Origin: Escherichia phage F2
Length of the DNA: 64,000 nt
Sequence record: NC_054913.1
Direction: 5' to 3' (one strand)
In this document: positions 17,773 through 57,791 of the stretch, piece after piece
Layout: each line of letters opens with the position of its first letter
Numbering within the stretch: the first letter of the stretch is position 1
The notes under the pieces: generated by a model
What the model saw: only the letters and a program-made list of their open reading frames with translations
Told to the model about the DNA's origin: nothing
The model's database searches: none
Position numbers and translations under genes: made by a program

Positions 17773-17784
17773 TATTTATAAATA
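17773..17784. promoter_or_regulatory. divergent overlapping late promoters for gene 51 (-) and gene 26 (+)
   Basis: TATTTATAAATA: TATAAATA readable on both strands between divergent late genes. Confidence 0.55.
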
Positions 17785-26502: not shown

Positions 26503-27162
26503 ATGAATTATTTAATTTACAAAATAACCAATCTCATTAATAACAAGATTTATATTGGAGCCCATGCCACTACAGATGTTAACGATTCTTATATGGGTTC
26601 CGGGGTTAACATAGTAAAATCCATAAAGAAATACGGCTTAGAGAATTTTAAAAAGGAAATCCTTTTCAATTTCGAAACATCTGAAGAGATGTATGCTAAG
26701 GAAGCCGAACTAGTTGACGAGGCTTTTGTCATGAGAACAGATACTTATAATGCCGCCTTAGGCGGCAAGGGTAATCCTGTTATAGTAGCTTTACAGGAAC
26801 CTGGGTATCGTGAGATGTTATCCGAAAAGACAAAAGCTGGTATGACTGAAGAAGTTCGGGCCAAAATATCTAAAAAGAAATTAGGTTCTAAAGAATCTAA
26901 AGAACATCGAGAAAACAAATCTATATCAAATAAAAAGTTTTATAAAAATAGAGATTCTCATCTTAAAGGTAGAAAACTATCAGAAGAGCATAAAGCAAAA
27001 ATTAGAAAGAATTCTAATAAAGGTAAGAAATTTGTATTTGTGGATATTTCTATTAAAGGTCATGAATTTAACCACTACGATTACGCTGCCGAATTCTTTA
27101 ACGTATCCGCAAAAACTATAAGAAATTGGATTAATGAACGCGATGATTGTTTTAAGCTATAG
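26503..27162 (+). CDS. GIY-YIG homing endonuclease (segD-like position)
   Basis: N-terminal YLIYKITN...IYIGAH GIY-YIG motif with downstream E and N residues; T4 has segD between genes 23 and 24. Confidence 0.75.
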   Translation: MNYLIYKITNLINNKIYIGAHATTDVNDSYMGSGVNIVKSIKKYGLENFKKEILFNFETSEEMYAKEAELVDEAFVMRTDTYNAALGGKGNPVIVALQEPGYREMLSEKTKAGMTEEVRAKISKKKLGSKESKEHRENKSISNKKFYKNRDSHLKGRKLSEEHKAKIRKNSNKGKKFVFVDISIKGHEFNHYDYAAEFFNVSAKTIRNWINERDDCFKL

Positions 27163-38424: not shown

Positions 38425-39189
38425 TTAATTCATAAACCCATCGTCAAATGGTGAATTTTGTCTACCACGGTTGTTAACTACTACATACGGCTCAACGTAT
38501 TCACTTGCCTCTGAATTGATTTGCTCAACTTCAGAATATTCATCGATATTAATGTCATGGATACCGTCAAGATTTCTAACAGGGTTAAGTTCCAAGTCAC
38601 TAAATTCAGGTATATTGATACCTTCATTTTTCTGAAGCACCGGATTGATTTCTTCGCCAGAGTAAATAAACTTGCCTGCAGTAATTTTACGAATCGCATT
38701 TTTACCTACTTGATAGAATGGGTCATATGGTTCAACCCAGTTAATCTCAAACAAACTGTTATCCATTGGGAAGTATATTAAATCACCTTCCTTGGGCTCC
38801 TGATTGTTGACCTGGTGTTTGAAAAGACCTGGGTTAATAGATAATGTAACTTCGTCTTGAACTTGCATTCCGAAGTTGCTGAAGAACGATTTCGCTCCTT
38901 CATAACCTTCAAAAGAGTTCAGATATGCAGCAAATTTCCATGCTTTAGTAAATTTATTTTTAAGGTCCTCACCAAAGATAAGGTCCACGGCAACATATTC
39001 ACGTGGAACATAAAAACATTCAATACCGCGCATCTGTATGCTTTCTGCTACTAACACATCAGCTAGGGTTTGACTATTTTCGTATTTGTTGAAGTTCACG
39101 TATTTGTTTAAAATCTCGGTTTCATTAGTTTTAGAATAGCCTTCTCGGTTTTCTAACTTTGCAAATAAATTTGAATTATACGTCGACAT
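38425..39189 (-). CDS. 14: neck protein gp14
   Basis: 254 aa versus T4 256; synteny. Confidence 0.8.
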
Positions 39190-39811
39190 AATTCCATCCT
39201 GCCCATTTAGGTTTGTTGTTTTTGCATCGGCCTATAACCGCGCTTGATGTGATATTAAATTCTTCACCACATTCTTTGCAGGTGTTAAATATTTTACCAT
39301 TTACACTAACTTTTCGAGCTGCTGGATTTTTTGAACCAGAAAAATCAGGATGTCTATGTTTGAAATCTTTCCACATTCTTGCTGTAGATTCTTTACGTTT
39401 TCTTAACCCTTCTTCAGTCCATTTTCTTGATTTTGCGGCGTCAGACATTTTCTTTTTAGATTGGGCTGAACGTTTTTGTCCTATAGATGGATTATCTTCT
39501 GGGTTAATATACGACCTTCCGCCTGCACCACCTTTAACAAGATTTGCGCAATTTTCTAAAATGGATAATTCATCTACCAGTAACTCTTCAGCTTCATCCA
39601 TTAGAGCTTTAGATTCAAATGGCTTAGACCATATAATTTCTTTTATACAAGACGGACCGTATTTTCTTTTGGCCCTTCGTATAAAGGTACCAGACCCAGT
39701 ATAAGGGTCTTTTGAAGGGTCTTCGTAAACTGATTTGTGTTTACCACCATAAATCTTTATACCGGTGGATGTTTCAAATGTTGTAATATACAATCTGTAG
39801 TATGTTGCCAT
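39176..39811 (-). CDS. GIY-YIG homing endonuclease inserted between genes 13 and 14
   Basis: [28 protein letters not shown] motif, downstream R, E, N; NUMOD-like basic repeat; C-terminal CKECGEEF Zn finger. Confidence 0.65.
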
Positions 39812-51304: not shown

Positions 51305-53274
51305 TGTGAAATAGGCTCCAAATCTATAGTTAAGTACTGAGGACGTAAGTCATTTTCGAATACGATTAAAGAACCATCCTTTGTAAAAATAATATCATCT
51401 GCAGGGTCGGAATAAAGTTCAATTGTTTGAACTTCAAAACGGTCTGAAGTGAGGTCAATTTTAGCAATGTTCCAATAAATCGAATCGGCAGGATAATTCA
51501 CTTCACCAATTGAATAGTATTTGTTTCGTCCGTCAGTAACAGTAAGTTTATTAAAATCATTACCTGTATAAGGTTGTATATTTTCGTTTTCAACAACATC
51601 ACCGTCTGCAAATGGACCAATAATAACTTGACCTATGCCACGGTCATTACGGTCAGAAGATACTATGCGAACACCGTATTTAATAGTTTCGTTTGCATTT
51701 TCTGGATTAGGTCTGTGCGAATCAAACGAGAATATATTAGATTCCATCGATCTATCTTTAATCTGATTATTGTATTTAATACCGGCCTCAGGCGTTTTAT
51801 AGAAGTTTTGTACTTCGCGAACCATTTGAATAGTAGCTGAAGAACCAATAATAGAAATATCTGCATCATCGACATAAGTTAGCATTTTAGATTTTGCAAA
51901 TGATGAGTTAAAAATTTCTACATCTTCAATATAATAACGGTCTATTTTATTAATAATCTGCCCTTCAAGATATTGTTCTGATTCCTGGAGTTTATTCAAC
52001 GCGTACGTAACTTTGATATTCATTTTGATAAACAAATAATCAGGCGAAATAACAACAGGTGTAATAGTCCCTAAGTTATAATCATTCAAATAGTTTTTGA
52101 TATCATCACGTTGAACAGAAGTCAAATACAATCCAGATTTAGGCTTAGCAGCAATATATGCGTACCCTGGTTTAGATGAATCCGTGAATGTTTGAACAGC
52201 TTGAATAATAGAACCAAACCGCTCAGAGACGAATGTGTCATAGTCGGAAGCGGTTACACAACGTTGTTGAGTTTCGCGTTTAATTGTGCCTAATTCGCGG
52301 ATACGTTCAATATCTTCAGGGTCGCCGCCACCATCGGCCCCAACAAAGTCTGGGTTATTGCTAGGGTTCTCGTTAATACCGATTACCGTGATATTAGCTA
52401 ATGTATCAGCATAAGAAAATCCTACAGCACCGTTAGCATCTGCGCCGTTAGTAGAAATATACTCAATTACGATTTTAGAACCCTGAACAGGTTTAAGGCC
52501 ACCAATATAGTTAGATGTTAACGCACCTTCTGATGTGTTAATAGAGATTTCGCCTTCACCAAAATAAAATTCAGTGTTCCCATCAACTGTTTCACGCATA
52601 TAATAGATTGTTGACGTAGAACCAGCGTGAACCATCGACTTACGAGTCCAGTTAATCCATTCTGCTCCGTCAACATACAACTTAACCAAATTACGGTCAA
52701 TATTCTTATCACGAATAATGATAGGTTTTAATCTATCAAATGTTAATTCAGTGCGAACAATACGTCCTTGAGCTAATCGAAGACGTGGAAAATATTGGTT
52801 ATTTTTGTCTTTAACTACAATGACATCTTCAGTAGAAACAAAGTTATACGGGTTAACAGAAGTATCTTTAGCGTATGCTAAGAAACGAGTGCCACGTGGA
52901 ATGGTGATATAGTTTCTATTTAATGCATCAGTACATGTGAGCATAATTTCTGTTTGTGCTGCTGATTTAGATGAAGGCAGATATCCGTTATCTTGAGCCG
53001 CTTGTACAACAGAACTACGCAAGTTTGCAGTACGCATAAAACTTTCATACACTGCACTATTACTGAACTGTTGGATGTAAAGAGTGTTATATGCTAAAAG
53101 GTCACACAATACGTTTAAACGCGAACCTTCAAAATCATAATCAAGAAATTCATTCTGTCCATTGAGCCATTCGATAATGTTCTGTTTGATTTCGGCAAAT
53201 GTGCCCCCGATAAAAATCTCGGGAATAGCATTCGCTGTTCGGGTTAATTGATAATTTACAGGAGTGTTTGCCAT
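51301..53274 (-). CDS. 6: baseplate wedge protein gp6
   Basis: 657 aa from internal ATG (MANTPVNYQL...) preceded by AGGA; track ORF extends 19 codons upstream. Confidence 0.85.
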   Translation of the reverse strand: MANTPVNYQLTRTANAIPEIFIGGTFAEIKQNIIEWLNGQNEFLDYDFEGSRLNVLCDLLAYNTLYIQQFSNSAVYESFMRTANLRSSVVQAAQDNGYLPSSKSAAQTEIMLTCTDALNRNYITIPRGTRFLAYAKDTSVNPYNFVSTEDVIVVKDKNNQYFPRLRLAQGRIVRTELTFDRLKPIIIRDKNIDRNLVKLYVDGAEWINWTRKSMVHAGSTSTIYYMRETVDGNTEFYFGEGEISINTSEGALTSNYIGGLKPVQGSKIVIEYISTNGADANGAVGFSYADTLANITVIGINENPSNNPDFVGADGGGDPEDIERIRELGTIKRETQQRCVTASDYDTFVSERFGSIIQAVQTFTDSSKPGYAYIAAKPKSGLYLTSVQRDDIKNYLNDYNLGTITPVVISPDYLFIKMNIKVTYALNKLQESEQYLEGQIINKIDRYYIEDVEIFNSSFAKSKMLTYVDDADISIIGSSATIQMVREVQNFYKTPEAGIKYNNQIKDRSMESNIFSFDSHRPNPENANETIKYGVRIVSSDRNDRGIGQVIIGPFADGDVVENENIQPYTGNDFNKLTVTDGRNKYYSIGEVNYPADSIYWNIAKIDLTSDRFEVQTIELYSDPADDIIFTKDGSLIVFENDLRPQYLTIDLEPISQ

Positions 53275-53282
53275 TTTAATTC

Positions 53283-53576
53283 CTATTTTATAAAGACTTT
53301 TGACGAGGCCTGAGAAACAGTATCCCCGCATGAAATTGGGTCAGCCATTTGAACAGCCTTTTTACCGGTGACATATACTTTAGATGTACGAGGTTCAGTA
53401 ACACCTCCATGAGTCTCGTATGGTTTTTTAATTTCTGTATGAGGTGTTATTTGGTCTCCTGCCACAAGAACAGGAATACCGCCGGTGAATACTTTAGATT
53501 GGGAAGCATTTATTACAGTAGGAGGCCATGCTTCATGACCTGTTGTAACGCACTTGTCGTAACTTAAGCCAGACAT
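53283..53576 (-). CDS. 5.4: PAAR-repeat spike tip protein gp5.4
   Basis: 97 aa from internal ATG, as T4 gp5.4; Gly/Thr-rich beta-repeat composition. Confidence 0.7.
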
Positions 53577-53578
53577 TT

Positions 53579-54094
53579 TCACGGCCTCACATAAACATAG
53601 TTTCGTAATTGTTGAGCCCATTTGCTCCAATTTCCTACTATAGTTTTTGTATAAACCTTAGTAAGAGTTTTTTGTACTGGAGCCGGTGGAGGTTCTGTAC
53701 CAGAGTCACTTCTAGAACCGCCTGATGAACTTTCTTCTTGGTAGTTATAAATCATTTCAACCGTATAACTAAACACTTTACGAAGATTCTGAGGAGCTCT
53801 CCACAAATATAACTGTGTGGATTCATCTTTTGGTAAATCATCCCATGAAGATGCGGTTTCAAAATCATCATTTAATCGGTATTTCAATGCATCCGAAGAA
53901 AAGCTAAACACACTTTCATATGTTCCATATAAACGATTACCATCTACCGTAATGCCTTGTGTCGGTTCATAATCTGTTATATTTATTGACACTAAAGTTT
54001 CGGTTGTTTCTAACTGTGGAGTAAAAAGGACGTCAATAGACGCCCCTTCCATGTCTTCTCCTAAGTCGGTATTTAAAGGAAGTATATTAGCCAA
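53579..54094 (-). CDS. hypothetical protein (gene 5.x position)
   Basis: 171-aa ORF between the seg-like gene and 5.4. Confidence 0.5.
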
Positions 54095-54950
54095 TTACTG
54101 AATTCTCCAATGGTGTAAATTTATAATCACATTTTTTCAATGCTTTTAAAATTGCGTTATAACTTACATCCGGTAGATTATGTTCAATTGCTTTTTCTCT
54201 AAACCATTTATATTTCTGCGGATGAGGTTTTCCCAAATCCTCCCAAAGTTTTTTGACTTTTTCAATACTAATCCAAGGTTCAACTGATCTTAGTTTTTTA
54301 TTTCTAGTATCTAATCTTGATTTTCTTATTAAAGGATTATTCCAGGATTTTTTCGTTCCTTCTATTTTTCCTGGATGATTAATTAATTTGTTTCTATATT
54401 CATCGGATTTCCATAAAGATTTGACAGTATTAGAAATACGAATTTTTAATGTGGGATCATTTTCAAAAGCAGTTTTCATCGCATTACTCATTTTCTTTCG
54501 ATATTCCGATTCCGAACATCTAAGTTTATTAATTTTTGAAATTTTTTCTGAAAATTCTTTTGTAGATTTTCCTTTTGCCAAAGCTTTAAGTTGAGTTTCT
54601 CGATACTCAGGATTAGACCACATTCGTTTTAAATCGTTTGAAGAAAATCCATCTCCACCGTCTTTTATATTAACACACTGGCCTGTTTTTCTATATTCAG
54701 ATATCCAAAATTTTTCTCTTTCATTTAAAACATCGAGTGTTGAAACGAATTCGATAATTTCGAAATCTATAGCATAGCCTGGTTTGTTTTTAATCTTTTG
54801 TATATAATCCCCGCTTCCTACGTAATTATCATCCTCTAGATTAAAATATCTGGATTCATGCTTTCCTATATATATTCGAACCAACCCCTTTGGGTTGGTT
54901 ACTGTTGATTTATAAATGTAACGGAATTGTATGGTTTTGGATTTCTTCAT
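54087..54950 (-). CDS. GIY-YIG homing endonuclease (segC-like position)
   Basis: FRYIYKSTVTNPKGLVRIYIGKH GIY-YIG motif; C-terminal Lys/Arg-rich NUMOD-like repeats. Confidence 0.7.
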   Translation of the reverse strand: MKKSKTIQFRYIYKSTVTNPKGLVRIYIGKHESRYFNLEDDNYVGSGDYIQKIKNKPGYAIDFEIIEFVSTLDVLNEREKFWISEYRKTGQCVNIKDGGDGFSSNDLKRMWSNPEYRETQLKALAKGKSTKEFSEKISKINKLRCSESEYRKKMSNAMKTAFENDPTLKIRISNTVKSLWKSDEYRNKLINHPGKIEGTKKSWNNPLIRKSRLDTRNKKLRSVEPWISIEKVKKLWEDLGKPHPQKYKWFREKAIEHNLPDVSYNAILKALKKCDYKFTPLENSVIG

Positions 54951-54965
54951 AATTTACCTCTGAAT

Positions 54966-54973
54966 TATTTATA
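54966..54973 (-). promoter_or_regulatory. late promoter for the seg-like gene
   Basis: TATTTATA on + 16 bp before the seg start, inside the gene 5 3' end. Confidence 0.45.
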
Positions 54974-56705
54974 ACCCGACATCCACACGGCTACCATCAA
55001 TTGTGTATTGACCAGATGAAATAGAACTCATAGATGCCATTGTTTCTGCCCAATCCCCGGCAACAGTCATATCAACATTACCATTAACAGTCCATTTAAC
55101 GTTTCCGTTGACGGTGTAATCATGATTCCCTTCGACCTGAGTTTTAGCATCACCTTTAACAAGAATATCTGCATTTCCGTCAACAACTATTTTGATATTA
55201 CCCTTAACGTAAAGAGTTCCATCGCCTTCAACAGTTTTAGATTGGTTACCGCGAATAAAGATTGTGTCATTGCCATCTATTTGATGGAGGCGGTCTGCCA
55301 TGTTATAATATATTTCATTAGCACCAACGTTAACAAGCTTATCGCCAGAAATCAAGAAGTTCCCATCACCATTAGTGATGTCAAAAAGGTCTTCTACAGT
55401 TTTACGAGTACGACGCCCAGACGGAGAAACTTCCTCATATGACCCTGTTGGATGAACTAAGCGATAACGTTCATTACCTGGAGTATCGTCAAATTCTTGG
55501 ATATGGCCGCTTTCTGTTTCCATAGCATGAACGTATGGATACTCACCACGATAACTTGATTCCGGTTCTTTAAAAAGGATACGTGAATCTAATGGAACAG
55601 GAGGACCAGCCGGGTCTTCTGGATCGGTATTTCTAGTAACTAAATCGGCACCAACTCCTGGTGAAGGCGGTGTTTTAACAGGAACGCCATATGATTCCAT
55701 GTTACCAGTTAAAATAATTGTTGTTACACGTGAAGCACGCCCTTTAGTCTGTTGGAACCATAACGAATCGCGTCCAGATTTGTATGCAGTTTTCCAATCA
55801 CCTGTGGCCATTGCTTTAAGCATAGTATTGAATTTTGCTACACCACCAACGCCCATCTGGAAGCACATGTTTTCTAATGCCATTTGGCGAGATCTGTTCA
55901 TTTTAGCATAAACAGGACCTACTTTAGAATTAGAACGAATGTCTTTTTGCATCTTAGCAAGGTCCTTCTCAAATAACGCTGTTGCTTCTTCTAATGTAAT
56001 AGTTCCCGGATTTCCTGTTACTTCACGCCCTACTTGATCAGATAACAATTTATTAATTCGAGACATATCTCGGGTTTTTTCCATTACTATAAGGTGTCCA
56101 ATACCTACTGTAGGATATCCGAGATGGTCCCAATACACTTTATCACGAAGACCTTCGTCACGACGTAACATTTCTGTTATTGTAAAATTAGGGTCATCAT
56201 CTTCTGGAATATTTGCTAAATCTGTATCGTCTGGGTTTATACCATAATCCAAGTTGTTATCTTGAATTACGTTAGAGTTTGAATAATAACCAGCTTCGCC
56301 GCCTTGGTTTAATACGTTCGTATCATTACCTAAACGTCGCGGATACTGGCCTGTCGGGTCTGAAAAACCTTCAAGTCTATTAGGCTTTTCACGTACTATT
56401 CCGCCATATGTACCAAGTACAATCCCGTTTGTTTTCCATTTGTCTAAAAAATGACCATATACTCGAGTTCCTTCAACAGGACCTGTAACAGAACCACCAA
56501 TACCTGACATTGATGCAGACGTAATAGGTTGAATAACAGTCATCCATGGAAGTTTTTCTGTAGGAATACCTTGTACATCACCTTGTGTTCTCTGCGCCGG
56601 ATGAAGACCAACGACTCGAACTCGAACTCGCCCTTGTTTTAATGGGTCCATTCTATCCTCGACAACACCCACGAACCAATTAAGGCTACTGCTAATCATT
56701 TCCAT
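54969..56705 (-). CDS. 5: baseplate central spike and tail lysozyme gp5
   Basis: 578 aa versus T4 575; lysozyme block DEGLRDKVYWDHLGYPTVGIGHL; C-terminal beta-helix VxGxxxxx repeats. Confidence 0.9.
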   Translation of the reverse strand: MEMISSSLNWFVGVVEDRMDPLKQGRVRVRVVGLHPAQRTQGDVQGIPTEKLPWMTVIQPITSASMSGIGGSVTGPVEGTRVYGHFLDKWKTNGIVLGTYGGIVREKPNRLEGFSDPTGQYPRRLGNDTNVLNQGGEAGYYSNSNVIQDNNLDYGINPDDTDLANIPEDDDPNFTITEMLRRDEGLRDKVYWDHLGYPTVGIGHLIVMEKTRDMSRINKLLSDQVGREVTGNPGTITLEEATALFEKDLAKMQKDIRSNSKVGPVYAKMNRSRQMALENMCFQMGVGGVAKFNTMLKAMATGDWKTAYKSGRDSLWFQQTKGRASRVTTIILTGNMESYGVPVKTPPSPGVGADLVTRNTDPEDPAGPPVPLDSRILFKEPESSYRGEYPYVHAMETESGHIQEFDDTPGNERYRLVHPTGSYEEVSPSGRRTRKTVEDLFDITNGDGNFLISGDKLVNVGANEIYYNMADRLHQIDGNDTIFIRGNQSKTVEGDGTLYVKGNIKIVVDGNADILVKGDAKTQVEGNHDYTVNGNVKWTVNGNVDMTVAGDWAETMASMSSISSGQYTIDGSRVDVGL

Positions 56706-57280
56706 TATGCAATCTCCATCTCACGAATCAAATCAGTAATAAACGAGTTTATATCTTCTTTTGCAACAATTTTTATTTTACGAAGTTTTTCATTATTTAA
56801 TATTGCCGCTTCATAAGTATCTACTGCAGCTAAAGGTCCTTTATATTGCGGGTACTTACGAGCTTCATCACCTTTATCATACCACACTAAAGGCTCATCA
56901 GGATATGAAACTAAATTGTAAAATTTCTCACGGTTCTCGTTAATATGGTAAAGAATTTGGTCTCCACCAGCATTTGCATATTTCTGAATAGACGCTTGAT
57001 ACGCTGCTTCCTGAGATGTAATCCAACCATAATACGGATCATAGTTATCATTACACATCAAAAGGACCCAGTATAATTGAGGGTTGCCATAAATTATGTT
57101 TGCTAGTTCTTCAGGACGTGGAGAGCCTTTAATGTAATAAGAACGTAATCTATAATTGGCAGCAACACGTTTAAAGTACTCTTTATAGTTACGAAATATG
57201 TCTGTCATAGGAATAGTAGGTGCATTCTTATCAACTGTTTTAGCACTATATCCTATTGGGTCGAAGAATGTAAATAACAA
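56705..57280 (-). CDS. 53: baseplate wedge protein gp53
   Basis: 191 aa versus T4 196; synteny. Confidence 0.75.
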   Translation of the reverse strand: MLFTFFDPIGYSAKTVDKNAPTIPMTDIFRNYKEYFKRVAANYRLRSYYIKGSPRPEELANIIYGNPQLYWVLLMCNDNYDPYYGWITSQEAAYQASIQKYANAGGDQILYHINENREKFYNLVSYPDEPLVWYDKGDEARKYPQYKGPLAAVDTYEAAILNNEKLRKIKIVAKEDINSFITDLIREMEIA

Positions 57281-57307
57281 AATAGTCTCCTTCCAATATG
57301 AAATTGG

Positions 57308-57330
57308 TATAAATAATAATACTATTTATA
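57308..57330. promoter_or_regulatory. divergent late promoters for gene 4 (+) and gene 53 (-)
   Basis: TATAAATA on + at 57308-57315 and TATTTATA at 57323-57330. Confidence 0.5.
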
Positions 57331-57341
57331 AGGAGGACAAC

Positions 57342-57791
57342 ATGGCCTACTCTGGTAAATGGGTCCCGAAAAATTTAAAAAAATACCGTGGAGACCATAC
57401 CAAAATAACGTATCGTTCAAACTGGGAAAAATTCTTTTTCGAATGGTTGGATAAAAATCCAGAAATTATTGCATGGGGCAGCGAAACGGCAGTAATTCCA
57501 TATTTTTGTAATGCTGAAGGTAAGAAACGTCGATACTATATGGACATATGGATGAAAGATGCATCAGGTCAAGAGTTCTTTGTAGAAATAAAACCAAAGA
57601 AAGAAACTCAGCCACCTATTAAGCCTGCAAATCTTACTACCGCAGCAAAGAAACGTTATATGAATGAAATATACACCTGGTCTGTGAACTGCGACAAATG
57701 GAAAGCTGCTTCTGCTGTCGCAGAAAAGAGAAATATAAAATTTCGAGTTCTAACCGAAGACGGACTTAGGAAACTCGGATACAAGGGGTAA
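57342..57791 (+). CDS. 4: head completion protein gp4
   Basis: 149 aa from ATG 57342 after AGGAGG; N-terminus [11 protein letters not shown]...[27 protein letters not shown] as T4 gp4. Confidence 0.8.

Follow-up and report, generated by a model that had tools for sequence, protein, structure and literature searches.

A 287-aa open reading frame located between gene 5 and gene 5.1 of a Mosigvirus, a T4-like phage, is very probably the gene of a free-standing Seg-type GIY-YIG homing endonuclease. It is a common sort of selfish gene, here well preserved, and its compact cassette was inserted into the terminal codons of gene 5. The gene was studied within the window, i.e., the whole stretch of 64,000 nucleotides that was analyzed, and the features of the locus are collected in Table 1. 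Genes for Seg-type homing endonucleases belong to the textbook picture of T-even phages. The locus carries little weight as a discovery, given that orthologues and the predicted late promoter are already labeled in public records. What makes it useful is that one site offers an uncluttered natural illustration of a complete homing cycle.

Table 1. Features of the gene 5 to gene 5.4 region, with window coordinates
Feature	Position	Strand	Basis
Gene 5 (baseplate hub/tail lysozyme), host gene invaded at its 3' end	54969..56705	minus	Pfam Gp5_OB, Phage_lysozyme, Gp5_C
44-nt gene 5 tract identical to T4/T6, unlike Mosigvirus	54994..55037	minus	interpreted as co-conversion tract
Recoded last codons of gene 5, cassette-supplied (…G SRVDVGL* versus …G SRIDIG*)	54969..54993	minus	alignments with gene-less alleles
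T4-type late promoter motif TATAAATA, cassette-borne, over the gene 5 stop	54966..54973	minus	conservation, fPS-2 annotation
GAGG Shine-Dalgarno sequence, 6 nt before the ATG	54957..54960	minus	direct reading; kept in all gene-bearing loci
Homing endonuclease gene, free-standing, Seg-type GIY-YIG, 287 aa	54087..54950	minus	ATG-start ORF, PHROG 314, dN/dS
GIY-YIG nuclease domain, residues 9 to 101	54648..54926	minus	YIY 11-13, YIG 27-29, E79, N94
9-bp hairpin in the coding region, codons 17 to 24 (VTNPKGLV)	54879..54900	minus	conserved; synonymous changes that compensate across lineages
Lys/Arg-rich helical repeat region, residues 104 to 225; presumed extended DNA-binding linker	54276..54641	minus	repeat statistics, model
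C-terminal region, residues 226 to 287; possibly a helix-turn-helix or winged-helix DNA-binding domain	54090..54275	minus	low confidence
8-nt direct repeat TTATAAAT, right copy (left copy 54967-54974)	54119..54126	minus	deletion footprints
T4-type right junction ATTGGCTAATATACTTCC	54078..54095	minus	alignments with gene-less alleles
Gene 5.1, native Mosigvirus allele, 157 aa when started at the T4-homologous ATG	53579..54052	minus	PHROG 1168 (E 5.5e-72), annotations
Gene 5.4 (PAAR spike tip), native Mosigvirus allele	53283..53576	minus	Pfam PAAR_motif (E 5e-10)

Nuclease domain and basic repeat region

The protein matches PHROG 314, "homing endonuclease," with an E value of 7e-20, and a family profile made from six sequences matches the catalytic domain of I-TevI (E 2.3e-6). 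The six-sequence profile was required for this match, as phmmer with the single sequence against the PDB matched I-TevI with an E value of only 0.2. By BLASTP, the nuclease domain is 32% identical over 122 aa (E 3e-8) to SegC of T4, an experimentally active endonuclease (PMC2988022). In a search of cluster representatives, the profile picked up 71,950 relatives at E ≤1e-3. In the structural model the nuclease domain adopts the GIY-YIG alpha/beta fold, and GIY and YIG occupy neighboring beta strands (residues 9 to 18 and 24 to 33, pLDDT about 96). The GIY-YIG assignment is supported by profile, pairwise, and structural evidence. The proposal of the earlier note that a GIY-YIG endonuclease gene of this length lies between gene 5 and the 5.x genes is confirmed.

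When the protein was scanned with Pfam and NCBIfam, no model reached an E value of 0.01, with chance matches at E >0.04, and the curated GIY-YIG models PF01541 and PF19835 gave no match to it even at an E value of 10. When six relatives were compared with these two models, a single one matched, and weakly (E 0.02 to 0.04). The miss reflects the restricted reach of those models among Seg-type sequences, and passing them is not a biochemical hallmark. A Foldseek search of the PDB with the full-length model gave no significant match.

At the level of single residues, Y13, Y27, and G29 are unchanged across 62 relatives, and the invariant E79 and N94 align with the ERENFWI…YNI segment of I-TevI that holds the catalytic E75 and N90. 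Compared with close relatives, GIY and YIG stand 5 residues further apart. R27 of I-TevI falls in an insertion of the HMM alignment, and the equivalent Arg could not be placed; R34, in the segment YIGKHESR, is kept in three orthologues and not across the wider family.

The nuclease domain is followed by the basic region, in which Lys and Arg make up 24% of residues 101 to 240. In this region a W/C-x-x-(P/D/S)-(E/L)-(Y/I)-R unit recurs four times, and there are K(I/M)S motifs that resemble NUMOD3; the region is helical in the model, with a pLDDT of 88 to 97 for residues 130 to 190. The Lys/Arg-rich NUMOD-like repeats described previously from the sequence are real as repeats, with a best self-match score of 43 against a shuffle maximum of 36; in Pfam the protein matched none of the NUMOD models, although three distant relatives (P0004 to P0006) match NUMOD3. 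The C-terminal 60 residues were modeled at a pLDDT of 45 to 67.

Cassette borders, neighboring genes, and loss of the gene

The earlier note had proposed comparing the gene 5 to gene 6 interval across phages. In the comparison made here, close relatives differ at a single exact position in whether they have the endonuclease gene, a stand-alone ORF that lies between conserved phage genes and outside any intron or intein. The 4.3-kb region is matched by 152 records at 90 to 99% identity; among the matches listed, ZQ3 alone gives a single unbroken alignment at this level, and the rest align in two pieces with 78 to 80% coverage. The ORF was found in none of the five Mosigvirus relatives at this level that were read directly. 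DNA of the endonuclease gene occurs in 33 phage records, namely, 30 of Tequatrovirus at 82 to 83% identity, ZQ3, and two CEV1 contigs, and the identical protein is encoded in ZQ3 and on 13 contigs. The gene is rare in Mosigvirus. About 30 Tequatrovirus records, T6 and Yersinia phage fPS-2 among them, have an orthologue of 85% identity in the same slot between gene 5 and gene 5.1, and the annotations given to such orthologues already read "seg-like" or "homing endonuclease"; a literature search found no paper characterizing this orthologue group.

Alignment with the gene-less alleles of p000y, TH58, PNJ-6, ST0, ATK47, and T4 revealed the borders of the cassette. On the left, gp5 gains one Leu and undergoes Ile to Val changes; the extra Leu codon (TTA), which completes TATAAATA, is confined to cassette-derived alleles. 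Because the cassette brings this recoded terminus along, gp5 stays intact. On the right, the last two codons and the stop of the endonuclease ORF correspond to the ancestral T4-type end of gene 5, and all five gene-less Mosigviruses have ATTGGGTAATATATGGCACAAATACTTCC in place of the junction ATTGGCTAATATACTTCC. The foreign flanks of the gene are short, amounting to at most about 18 nt downstream and to 2 to 44 nt upstream. The right-hand switch from T4-type to Mosigvirus-type sequence lies within about 8 to 9 nt of shared sequence, which is short for ordinary homologous repair. The 44-nt tract upstream is present in the window and in two further loci (L013 and L015) and absent from ZQ3 and five other gene-bearing Mosigvirus loci. 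Two classes of left co-conversion tract, read as sequence traces and not from a cross, exist among Mosigvirus loci that encode an identical endonuclease, which argues for repeated recent transfer or recombination.

The neighboring genes 5.1 and 5.4 of the window are, by sliding-window identity, 97 to 100% identical to those of the gene-less Mosigvirus p000y and about 50 to 83% identical to those of T6. Likewise, the gene-bearing T6 and the gene-less T4 are 97 to 100% identical over 5.1 and 5.4, except where T4 has segC and 5.3. The suggestion that the endonuclease shuffles alleles of the PAAR gene (5.4) is not supported, given these native neighbors and the short foreign flanks; only the C-terminal tip of gp5, the seat of the PAAR protein, is rewritten and differs between cassette-bearing and cassette-less phages. 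The 8-nt overlap reported for the endonuclease ORF and the ORF downstream depends on an unsupported TTG start at 54094. The ATG at 54052 is the homologue of the gene 5.1 start annotated in T4, T6, ZQ3, and p000y and is preceded by GGAG; a start there leaves a gap of 34 nt, and we recommend this T4-homologous ATG for annotation.

The endonuclease gene evolves under purifying selection, with dN/dS values of 0.05 to 0.10 against two other lineages. Between the window and T6, synonymous sites of codons 1 to 148 are saturated (pS 0.84, pN 0.15), and codons 149 to 287 are near-identical, with a dS of 0.23. The gene is a chimera with a recombination breakpoint inside it. The gene has also been lost: in Tequatrovirus ESh36 and LF73P1 the recoded gene 5 end runs at TTATAAAT into what is left of the endonuclease gene, its last 13 codons, and two more Tequatrovirus records (215Ecol030PP and LF73P3) display the same pattern as seen by BLAST only. 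The gene has been deleted in at least two, and probably four, Tequatrovirus records. Recombination between the two copies of TTATAAAT would explain the footprints in ESh36 and LF73P1, and the existence of such footprints indicates that the cassette is dispensable.

These data bear on whether the gene could be a remnant that has lost catalysis or been domesticated, and that persists for its gene 5 terminus and a promoter for 5.1, 5.4, and 6, or as a DNA-binding protein only. The failure of the curated GIY-YIG models, the unplaced equivalent of R27, and the 5-residue insertion between the GIY and YIG strands all fit such a remnant, and the identical protein on 13 contigs means that its spread could be clonal. 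We nevertheless consider it unlikely, given the invariance of Y13, Y27, G29, E79, and N94, a dN/dS of about 0.1 or lower in the nuclease half, the synonymous saturation against T6 at a pN of 0.15, the two tract classes around an identical gene, and a cassette that can be deleted.

Late promoter motif and translation signals

An exact late promoter motif near the endonuclease start had been claimed for this locus, inside the 3' end of gene 5. The motif is indeed exact and is carried by the cassette, but its position needs restating: TATAAATA is not deep inside the gene but overlaps the last sense codon and the stop of gene 5 (GGG TTA TAA ATA), and 15 nt separate it from the endonuclease ATG at 54950. 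In the window there are 21 copies of TATAAATA, compared with 8.1 ± 2.9 in shuffled sequences (2.6-fold; none of 100 shuffles reaches 21), and 11 of them sit 15 to 32 nt before the ATG of a same-strand ORF of at least 50 aa. The endonuclease spacing is the shortest among those 11, followed by 17 and 18 nt. The motif was found in all 12 gene-bearing loci examined (three lineages, 74 to 100% aa identity) and in none of the six intact gene-less alleles examined (five Mosigvirus and T4), and the homologous motif of fPS-2 is already annotated as "predicted late promoter." This distribution supports the assignment of TATAAATA to the inserted cassette.

The T4 late promoter consensus lies at positions −13 to −6 of the transcript start (PMC1524935), and for the endonuclease a start at about 54960 is predicted. 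A transcript beginning there, 6 nt past TATAAATA, would open on the GAGG itself with a leader of 10 nt. No hairpin sequestering the ribosome-binding site, as in the intron ORFs of T4, was found upstream of the ORF (fold z-score of 0.31 versus shuffles). A scan of positions 53200 to 55400 for sigma-70 promoters and terminators gave results at or below shuffle expectation, and the one terminator-like site it produced corresponds to the hairpin in the coding region, read on the antisense strand. Further orthologue lineages sought for testing this hairpin and the promoter comprised one T6-type copy from a viral contig collection and none from a metagenome contig collection.

Less probably, TATAAATA does not work as a promoter dedicated to the endonuclease and merely arises from the AT-rich surroundings of the TTA-TAA stop. 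Expression would then come only by read-through from the late promoters upstream of genes 53 and 5, on which translation of the endonuclease from its own GAGG might depend. The motif shares bases with the final sense codon and the stop of gene 5 and is to that extent under coding constraint, which agrees with this, as do a predicted start that would leave the Shine-Dalgarno sequence right at the RNA 5' end, the shortest spacing in the window, and the lack of a sequestering hairpin that would necessitate a separate late start. Moreover, seven free-standing endonuclease genes of T4, segC among them, are promoter-less cassettes (PMC2988022). A mere stop context, however, fits poorly with the retention of all 8 bases in three lineages whose neighboring third-codon positions differ, and with their absence from all six intact gene-less alleles. 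The restriction of the completing TTA codon to cassette-derived alleles, the enrichment of the motif, and its recurrence before ORF starts, including at 17 and 18 nt, likewise favor a functional promoter.

Proposed homing model and comparison with known systems

The protein consists of an N-terminal GIY-YIG nuclease domain, a basic helical repeat linker, and a small putative C-terminal DNA-binding domain. Its cassette supplies the recoded gene 5 terminus, the late promoter motif, the GAGG, and an ORF that stops on the old T4-type gene 5 stop. Late in a mixed infection, the enzyme is expected to make a double-strand break in or near the gene 5 3' end of a cassette-less co-infecting phage, and repair off the cassette-bearing genome would copy the cassette together with a variable flanking stretch of gene 5. 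The recoded gene 5 end presumably keeps the enzyme from attacking the genome that carries it. The analysis shows the homology, the fold, the layout of the cassette, its patchy distribution, the mosaic flanks, purifying selection, and deletion footprints; that the protein cuts DNA, where it cuts, that the recoded allele is immune, and that the promoter is used are what we infer in this scheme. The characterized free-standing endonucleases of T4 usually cut hundreds of base pairs from their own gene (PMC2988022), so the recoded terminus may not be the target. On this reading the cassette originated in a Tequatrovirus-type background and then crossed into Mosigvirus, variants of the gene recombined with each other, and the gene can be lost again through recombination of the two 8-nt repeats. 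The site illustrates the whole course of homing: an essential gene is entered at its final codons and given a recoded end as substitute, the cassette passes from one genus to another with co-conversion tracts that vary, variants exchange nuclease and DNA-binding halves, and short repeats recombine to remove the gene.

The nuclease might instead serve mainly in phage-phage competition (marker exclusion) or in evasion of host defense, and not in its own spread. Free-standing Seg enzymes exclude neighboring markers of co-infecting phages (PMC2988022), and SegB of T6 is reported to drive segmental amplification of loci with anti-defense functions (PMC13096335). This role is very unlikely here, since no repeats or amplification junctions were seen at the locus, the neighboring genes are structural, and co-conversion, patchy distribution, and deletion are traces of plain homing.

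Within the homing model, a more speculative addition is suggested by analogy with I-TevI, which represses itself at an operator overlapping its late promoter. The recoded gene 5 terminus, which overlaps TATAAATA, could be a decayed version of the site at which the enzyme homes; the enzyme might bind it without cutting and so repress its own late promoter, and the covarying hairpin at codons 17 to 24 might add a second control after transcription. We regard this as improbable. If true, it would provide a free-standing Seg enzyme with built-in autoregulation, and late transcription of 5.1, 5.4, and 6 would be adjusted by the cassette as well, besides its rewriting of the PAAR-carrying tip of gp5.

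I-TevI of the td intron resembles the window protein in its catalytic fold and motifs and in a two-part architecture of nuclease, linker, and DNA-binding domain, the last of which is putative in the window protein. It also has a late promoter directly upstream of its ORF (PMC2988022), as the motif suggests for the window gene. It differs in being intron-encoded, in its zinc-finger linker, and in a ribosome-binding site sequestered in early transcripts, whereas the window gene has neither intron nor sequestering hairpin.

SegC of T4 shares with the window gene a homologous nuclease domain, a place in the same spike-gene cluster, and the orientation of its neighbors. It lies, however, one slot downstream, between 5.1 and 5.3, and has 140 aa in the T4 record, whereas the window gene lies between 5 and 5.1, encodes 287 aa, and carries a late promoter motif. 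With a different slot and only 32% identity in the nuclease domain, segC was rejected as the orthologue; segC and 5.3 are absent from the window. Two further Seg-like ORFs of the window, 28 to 34% identical to the gene studied, are at unrelated insertion sites, one of them in the slot between genes 23 and 24 in opposite orientation, as is T4 segD.

The closest counterparts are the seg-like ORF "T6ncORF142" of T6, g146 of Yersinia phage fPS-2, and the "Seg-like homing endonuclease" of Shigella phage vB_SsoM_113, uncharacterized proteins of 85 to 86% identity. They share the slot and the plan of the cassette, with a recoded gene 5 end, TATAAATA, GAGG, and an ORF ending on ATTGGCTAA. The window gene differs from them in being chimeric and in residing in another genus, Mosigvirus.

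A Seg-type endonuclease gene next to gene 5

The open reading frame (ORF) that follows gene 5 is, judging by its sequence, a free-standing gene for a GIY-YIG homing endonuclease of the Seg type. Its orthologues are already annotated as homing endonucleases, but no experimental characterization of this endonuclease was found in the literature. The earlier note described the locus essentially correctly; the role in PAAR shuffling that it proposed is not borne out.

Features of the endonuclease locus and of related or neighboring sites in the window
Feature	Coordinates	Strand	Remarks
Endonuclease ORF	54087..54950	-	ATG start, 287 aa
Gene 5	3' end at 54969	-	Pfam Gp5_OB (E 4e-62), Phage_lysozyme, Gp5_C
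TATAAATA, exact	54973-54966	-	Overlaps last sense codon and stop of gene 5
Hairpin	54879-54900	-	9 bp, perfect, in mRNA; codons 17-24; AACCAACCC-AAAG-GGGTTGGTT
Second Seg-like GIY-YIG ORF	39176-39811	-	211 aa; tblastn with endonuclease, E 3.7e-10; weak C-terminal Pfam I-TevI_DNA-bd match
Gene 14 neck protein	38425-39189		Pfam T4_neck-protein; neighbor of second Seg-like ORF
Third Seg-like ORF	26503-27162	+	219 aa; weak Pfam SegE_GIY-YIG match
Two TATAAATA copies	17773-17784	both	4-nt overlap
Mechanical ORF	57198-57791	+	197 aa; homologous head completion protein (gp4) annotated with 149 aa in relatives

Pfam and NCBIfam gave no match to the protein, even at E 10. The claim of a 287-aa GIY-YIG protein is nevertheless borne out by PHROGs (phrog_314, "homing endonuclease," E 7e-20) and by BLASTP against T4 SegC (32% identical across 122 residues, E 3e-8), a Seg enzyme with experimentally shown activity (PMC2988022). 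A six-sequence profile matched the I-TevI catalytic domain (1LN0) over its full length (E 2.3e-6), and at E ≤1e-3 it retrieved 71,950 cluster representatives, which indicates a very large family. The AlphaFold2 model (62 sequences) also agrees, with residues 10 to 100 at pLDDT 81 to 97 and low confidence for the last 60 residues, as does the invariance of Y13, Y27, G29, E79, and N94 across the 62-sequence alignment; a counterpart of I-TevI R27 could not be placed by profile alignment. A word-indexed protein search gave only six relatives, the sequences used for the profile: three orthologues (74 to 100% identity) and three distant proteins that carry the canonical N terminus (GYIYK…IYIGK…YxGSG…NEREKFWI…YNI…GGDG) and match Pfam NUMOD3.

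Residues 101 to 240 are 24% Lys plus Arg and contain four W/C-x-x-(P/D/S)-(E/L)-(Y/I)-R units (best self-match score of 43 versus a shuffle mean of 23.7 and maximum of 36). The Lys/Arg-rich NUMOD-like repeats described previously are therefore real and the loose label is fair, although the protein itself reaches none of the NUMOD models.

Comparison with the T6 orthologue revealed a sharp shift in synonymous divergence at approximately 54506 (codon ∼148). Up to codon 148 the proteins are 77% identical, and where the residue is shared the codon differs in 54% of cases (pS 0.84, saturated); over codons 149 to 287 these values are 96% and 11% (dS 0.23). The shift marks a breakpoint of recombination that separates the nuclease part from the DNA-binding part, so that same-site variants have swapped halves, with both kept functional. 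For all comparisons among the three lineages with an estimable dS, dN/dS is 0.05 to 0.10, and the gene is under selection as well as being a chimera.

The hairpin listed in the table codes for VTNPKGLV, a stretch that takes in the 5-residue insertion lying between the GIY strand and the YIG strand. A 9-bp counterpart, TACTAATCC-GAAA-GGATTAGTA, is present in T6 and fPS-2, and an 8-bp version in L007, a third-lineage locus. The three stem pairs made of two third-codon positions all differ between the window and T6 and are all still Watson-Crick, the pairing being held although synonymous sites of codons 1 to 148 are saturated. With random synonymous coding of this peptide, a 9-bp stem has a probability of 0.011, and one of at least 8 bp, 0.037.

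Junction with gene 5 and candidate late promoter

The minus strand at the junction reads GGG TTA TAA ATA ATT CAG AGG TAA ATT ATG. An exact TATAAATA thus lies 15 nt from the endonuclease ATG, with GAGG 6 nt upstream of that start. This confirms the exact late promoter motif reported there; its placement inside the 3' end of gene 5 holds as an overlap with the last sense codon and stop. An 8-nt overlap with the next ORF, also claimed, requires that ORF to begin with the TTG at 54094. Homology points instead to the ATG at 54052, which is preceded by GGAG, matches the annotated 5.1 of T4, T6, ZQ3, and p000y, and leaves a 34-nt spacer.

The window contains 21 copies of TATAAATA, versus 8.1 ± 2.9 in shuffles (0 of 100 reach 21), and 11 of them lie 15 to 32 nt before a same-strand ATG (ORFs of at least 50 aa). 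The endonuclease gene has the smallest of these spacings, 15 nt; the next are 17 and 18 nt. The motif, GAGG, and the spacing are kept in all 12 gene-bearing loci read, including L007 (74% identical), and the motif is missing in every intact gene-less allele read. T4 late promoters have TATAAATA at −13 to −6 (PMC1524935), which predicts a transcript start at approximately 54960, the first G of GAGG. The resulting 10-nt leader would be unusually short, a real caveat for the candidate promoter.

The two overlapping copies at 17773-17784 are on opposite strands, each 17 to 18 nt before the ATG of divergent ORFs (250 and 208 aa), and look like a candidate back-to-back late promoter pair.

Origin, spread, and loss of the cassette

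The limits of the cassette were defined by aligning alleles with and without the gene. Gene-less alleles read …GATGG ATCTCGTATTGATAT TGGGTAA in Mosigvirus and …GATGG ATCGAGGATTGACAT TGGCTAA in T4, and both code for a gene-5 end of …DGSRIDIG*. With the cassette present, TAGCCGTGTGGATGTCGGGTTATAAATAATT-CAGAGGTAAATT-ATG…(ORF)…TCAGTAAT stands in place of these 15 nt and is followed by TGGCTAA. The cassette thus brings a recoded gene-5 end (…DGSRVDVGL*), TATAAATA, GAGG, and the ORF, whose stop is the former T4-type gene-5 stop (ATT GGC TAA). Gp5 ends in …AETMASMSSISSGQYTIDGSRVDVGL in the window versus …AETMSTMSSVASGQYTVDGSRIDIG in gene-less Mosigvirus, and this C terminus is what the element alters. 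Gene-bearing Mosigvirus loci have a T4-type right junction, ATTGGCTAATATACTTCC, where the five gene-less Mosigviruses read all have ATTGGGTAATATATGGCACAAATACTTCC; the cassette was thus assembled in a Tequatrovirus-type genome and then transferred to Mosigvirus.

Gene 5 is a 578-aa ORF in the window and other loci; in ZQ3 its annotated 560-aa version lacks 18 codons from the 5' end. In L009 (positions 1235-2981; ENA metagenome scaffold XUQI22-1…scaffold_62) the gene call is split into ORFs of 337 and 243 aa, which points to a frameshift or a misassembly. The head completion protein has a precomputed Pfam Tn7_TnsA-like_N match.

The 4.3-kb region around the ORF is 96 to 99% identical to Mosigvirus genomes. 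At this level of identity, only Escherichia phage vB_EcoM-ZQ3 matched in one piece; the remaining listed relatives aligned as two pieces (coverage of 78 to 80%), and the ORF is missing in all five of these read directly (p000y, TH58, PNJ-6, ST0, and ATK47). ORF DNA was found in 33 phage records: ZQ3, two CEV1 contigs, and 30 Tequatrovirus records at 82 to 83% identity, including T6, ACG-C40, fPS-2, and PYPS2T. Thirteen contigs code for exactly the same 287-aa protein.

The flanks of the identical-protein loci bear traces of homing, and the left flank has two forms. In ZQ3 and five other loci it is Mosigvirus-type until two bases before the cassette; the window, L013, and L015 have 44 additional nt (55037-54994) that are identical to T4/T6. 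On the right, foreign sequence stops within ∼18 nt. Outside the foreign tracts, the window is 97 to 100% identical to gene-less p000y across 5.1, 5.4, and gene 6, versus only ∼50 to 83% for T6; T6 and T4 are 97 to 100% identical over 5.1 and 5.4, except at the segC/5.3 insertion point. These patterns give no sign of the element moving PAAR alleles, and the proposed shuffling is unsupported.

A 96-nt probe spanning the recoded gene-5 end matched, through TATAAAT, four Tequatrovirus records that lack the gene. ESh36 (a Shigella phage) and LF73P1 were read directly; 215Ecol030PP and LF73P3 share only the BLAST pattern. In ESh36 and LF73P1 (L032 and L033, both 1860-1945) gene 5 ends in …DVGL* and is directly followed by TTTACATCATTAGAGAATTCAACAATTGGCTAA, the final 13 endonuclease codons. 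The join lies within TTATAAAT, an 8-nt direct repeat found in the window at the promoter (54974-54967) and near the ORF 3' end (54126-54119). Both loci are deletion footprints of the endonuclease gene. LF73P1 has the window type of recoding, GTGGATGTCGGG, which indicates that this cassette variant has also resided in Tequatrovirus.

Comparison with T-even endonuclease genes

The second Seg-like ORF lies between gene 14 and an upstream 308-aa ORF, probably gene 13. The third lies between minus-strand ORFs of 427 and 522 aa, on the strand opposite to both; with these putative neighbors, it matches T4 segD, located between genes 24 and 23, in both position and orientation (PMC2988022).

Folding of the region upstream of the endonuclease gene was no better than in shuffles (z 0.31). 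Unlike I-TevI, this gene therefore has no ribosome-binding-site trap, and ribosomes could also translate read-through RNAs that start at late promoters farther upstream. The T6 orthologue occupies the same slot ("seg-like hypothetical protein… T6ncORF142"), and in fPS-2 the annotation is "Phage-associated homing endonuclease," the homologous TATAAATA there being labeled a "predicted late promoter." T4, in contrast, has nothing between 5 and 5.1 and carries segC one slot on, between 5.1 and 5.3.
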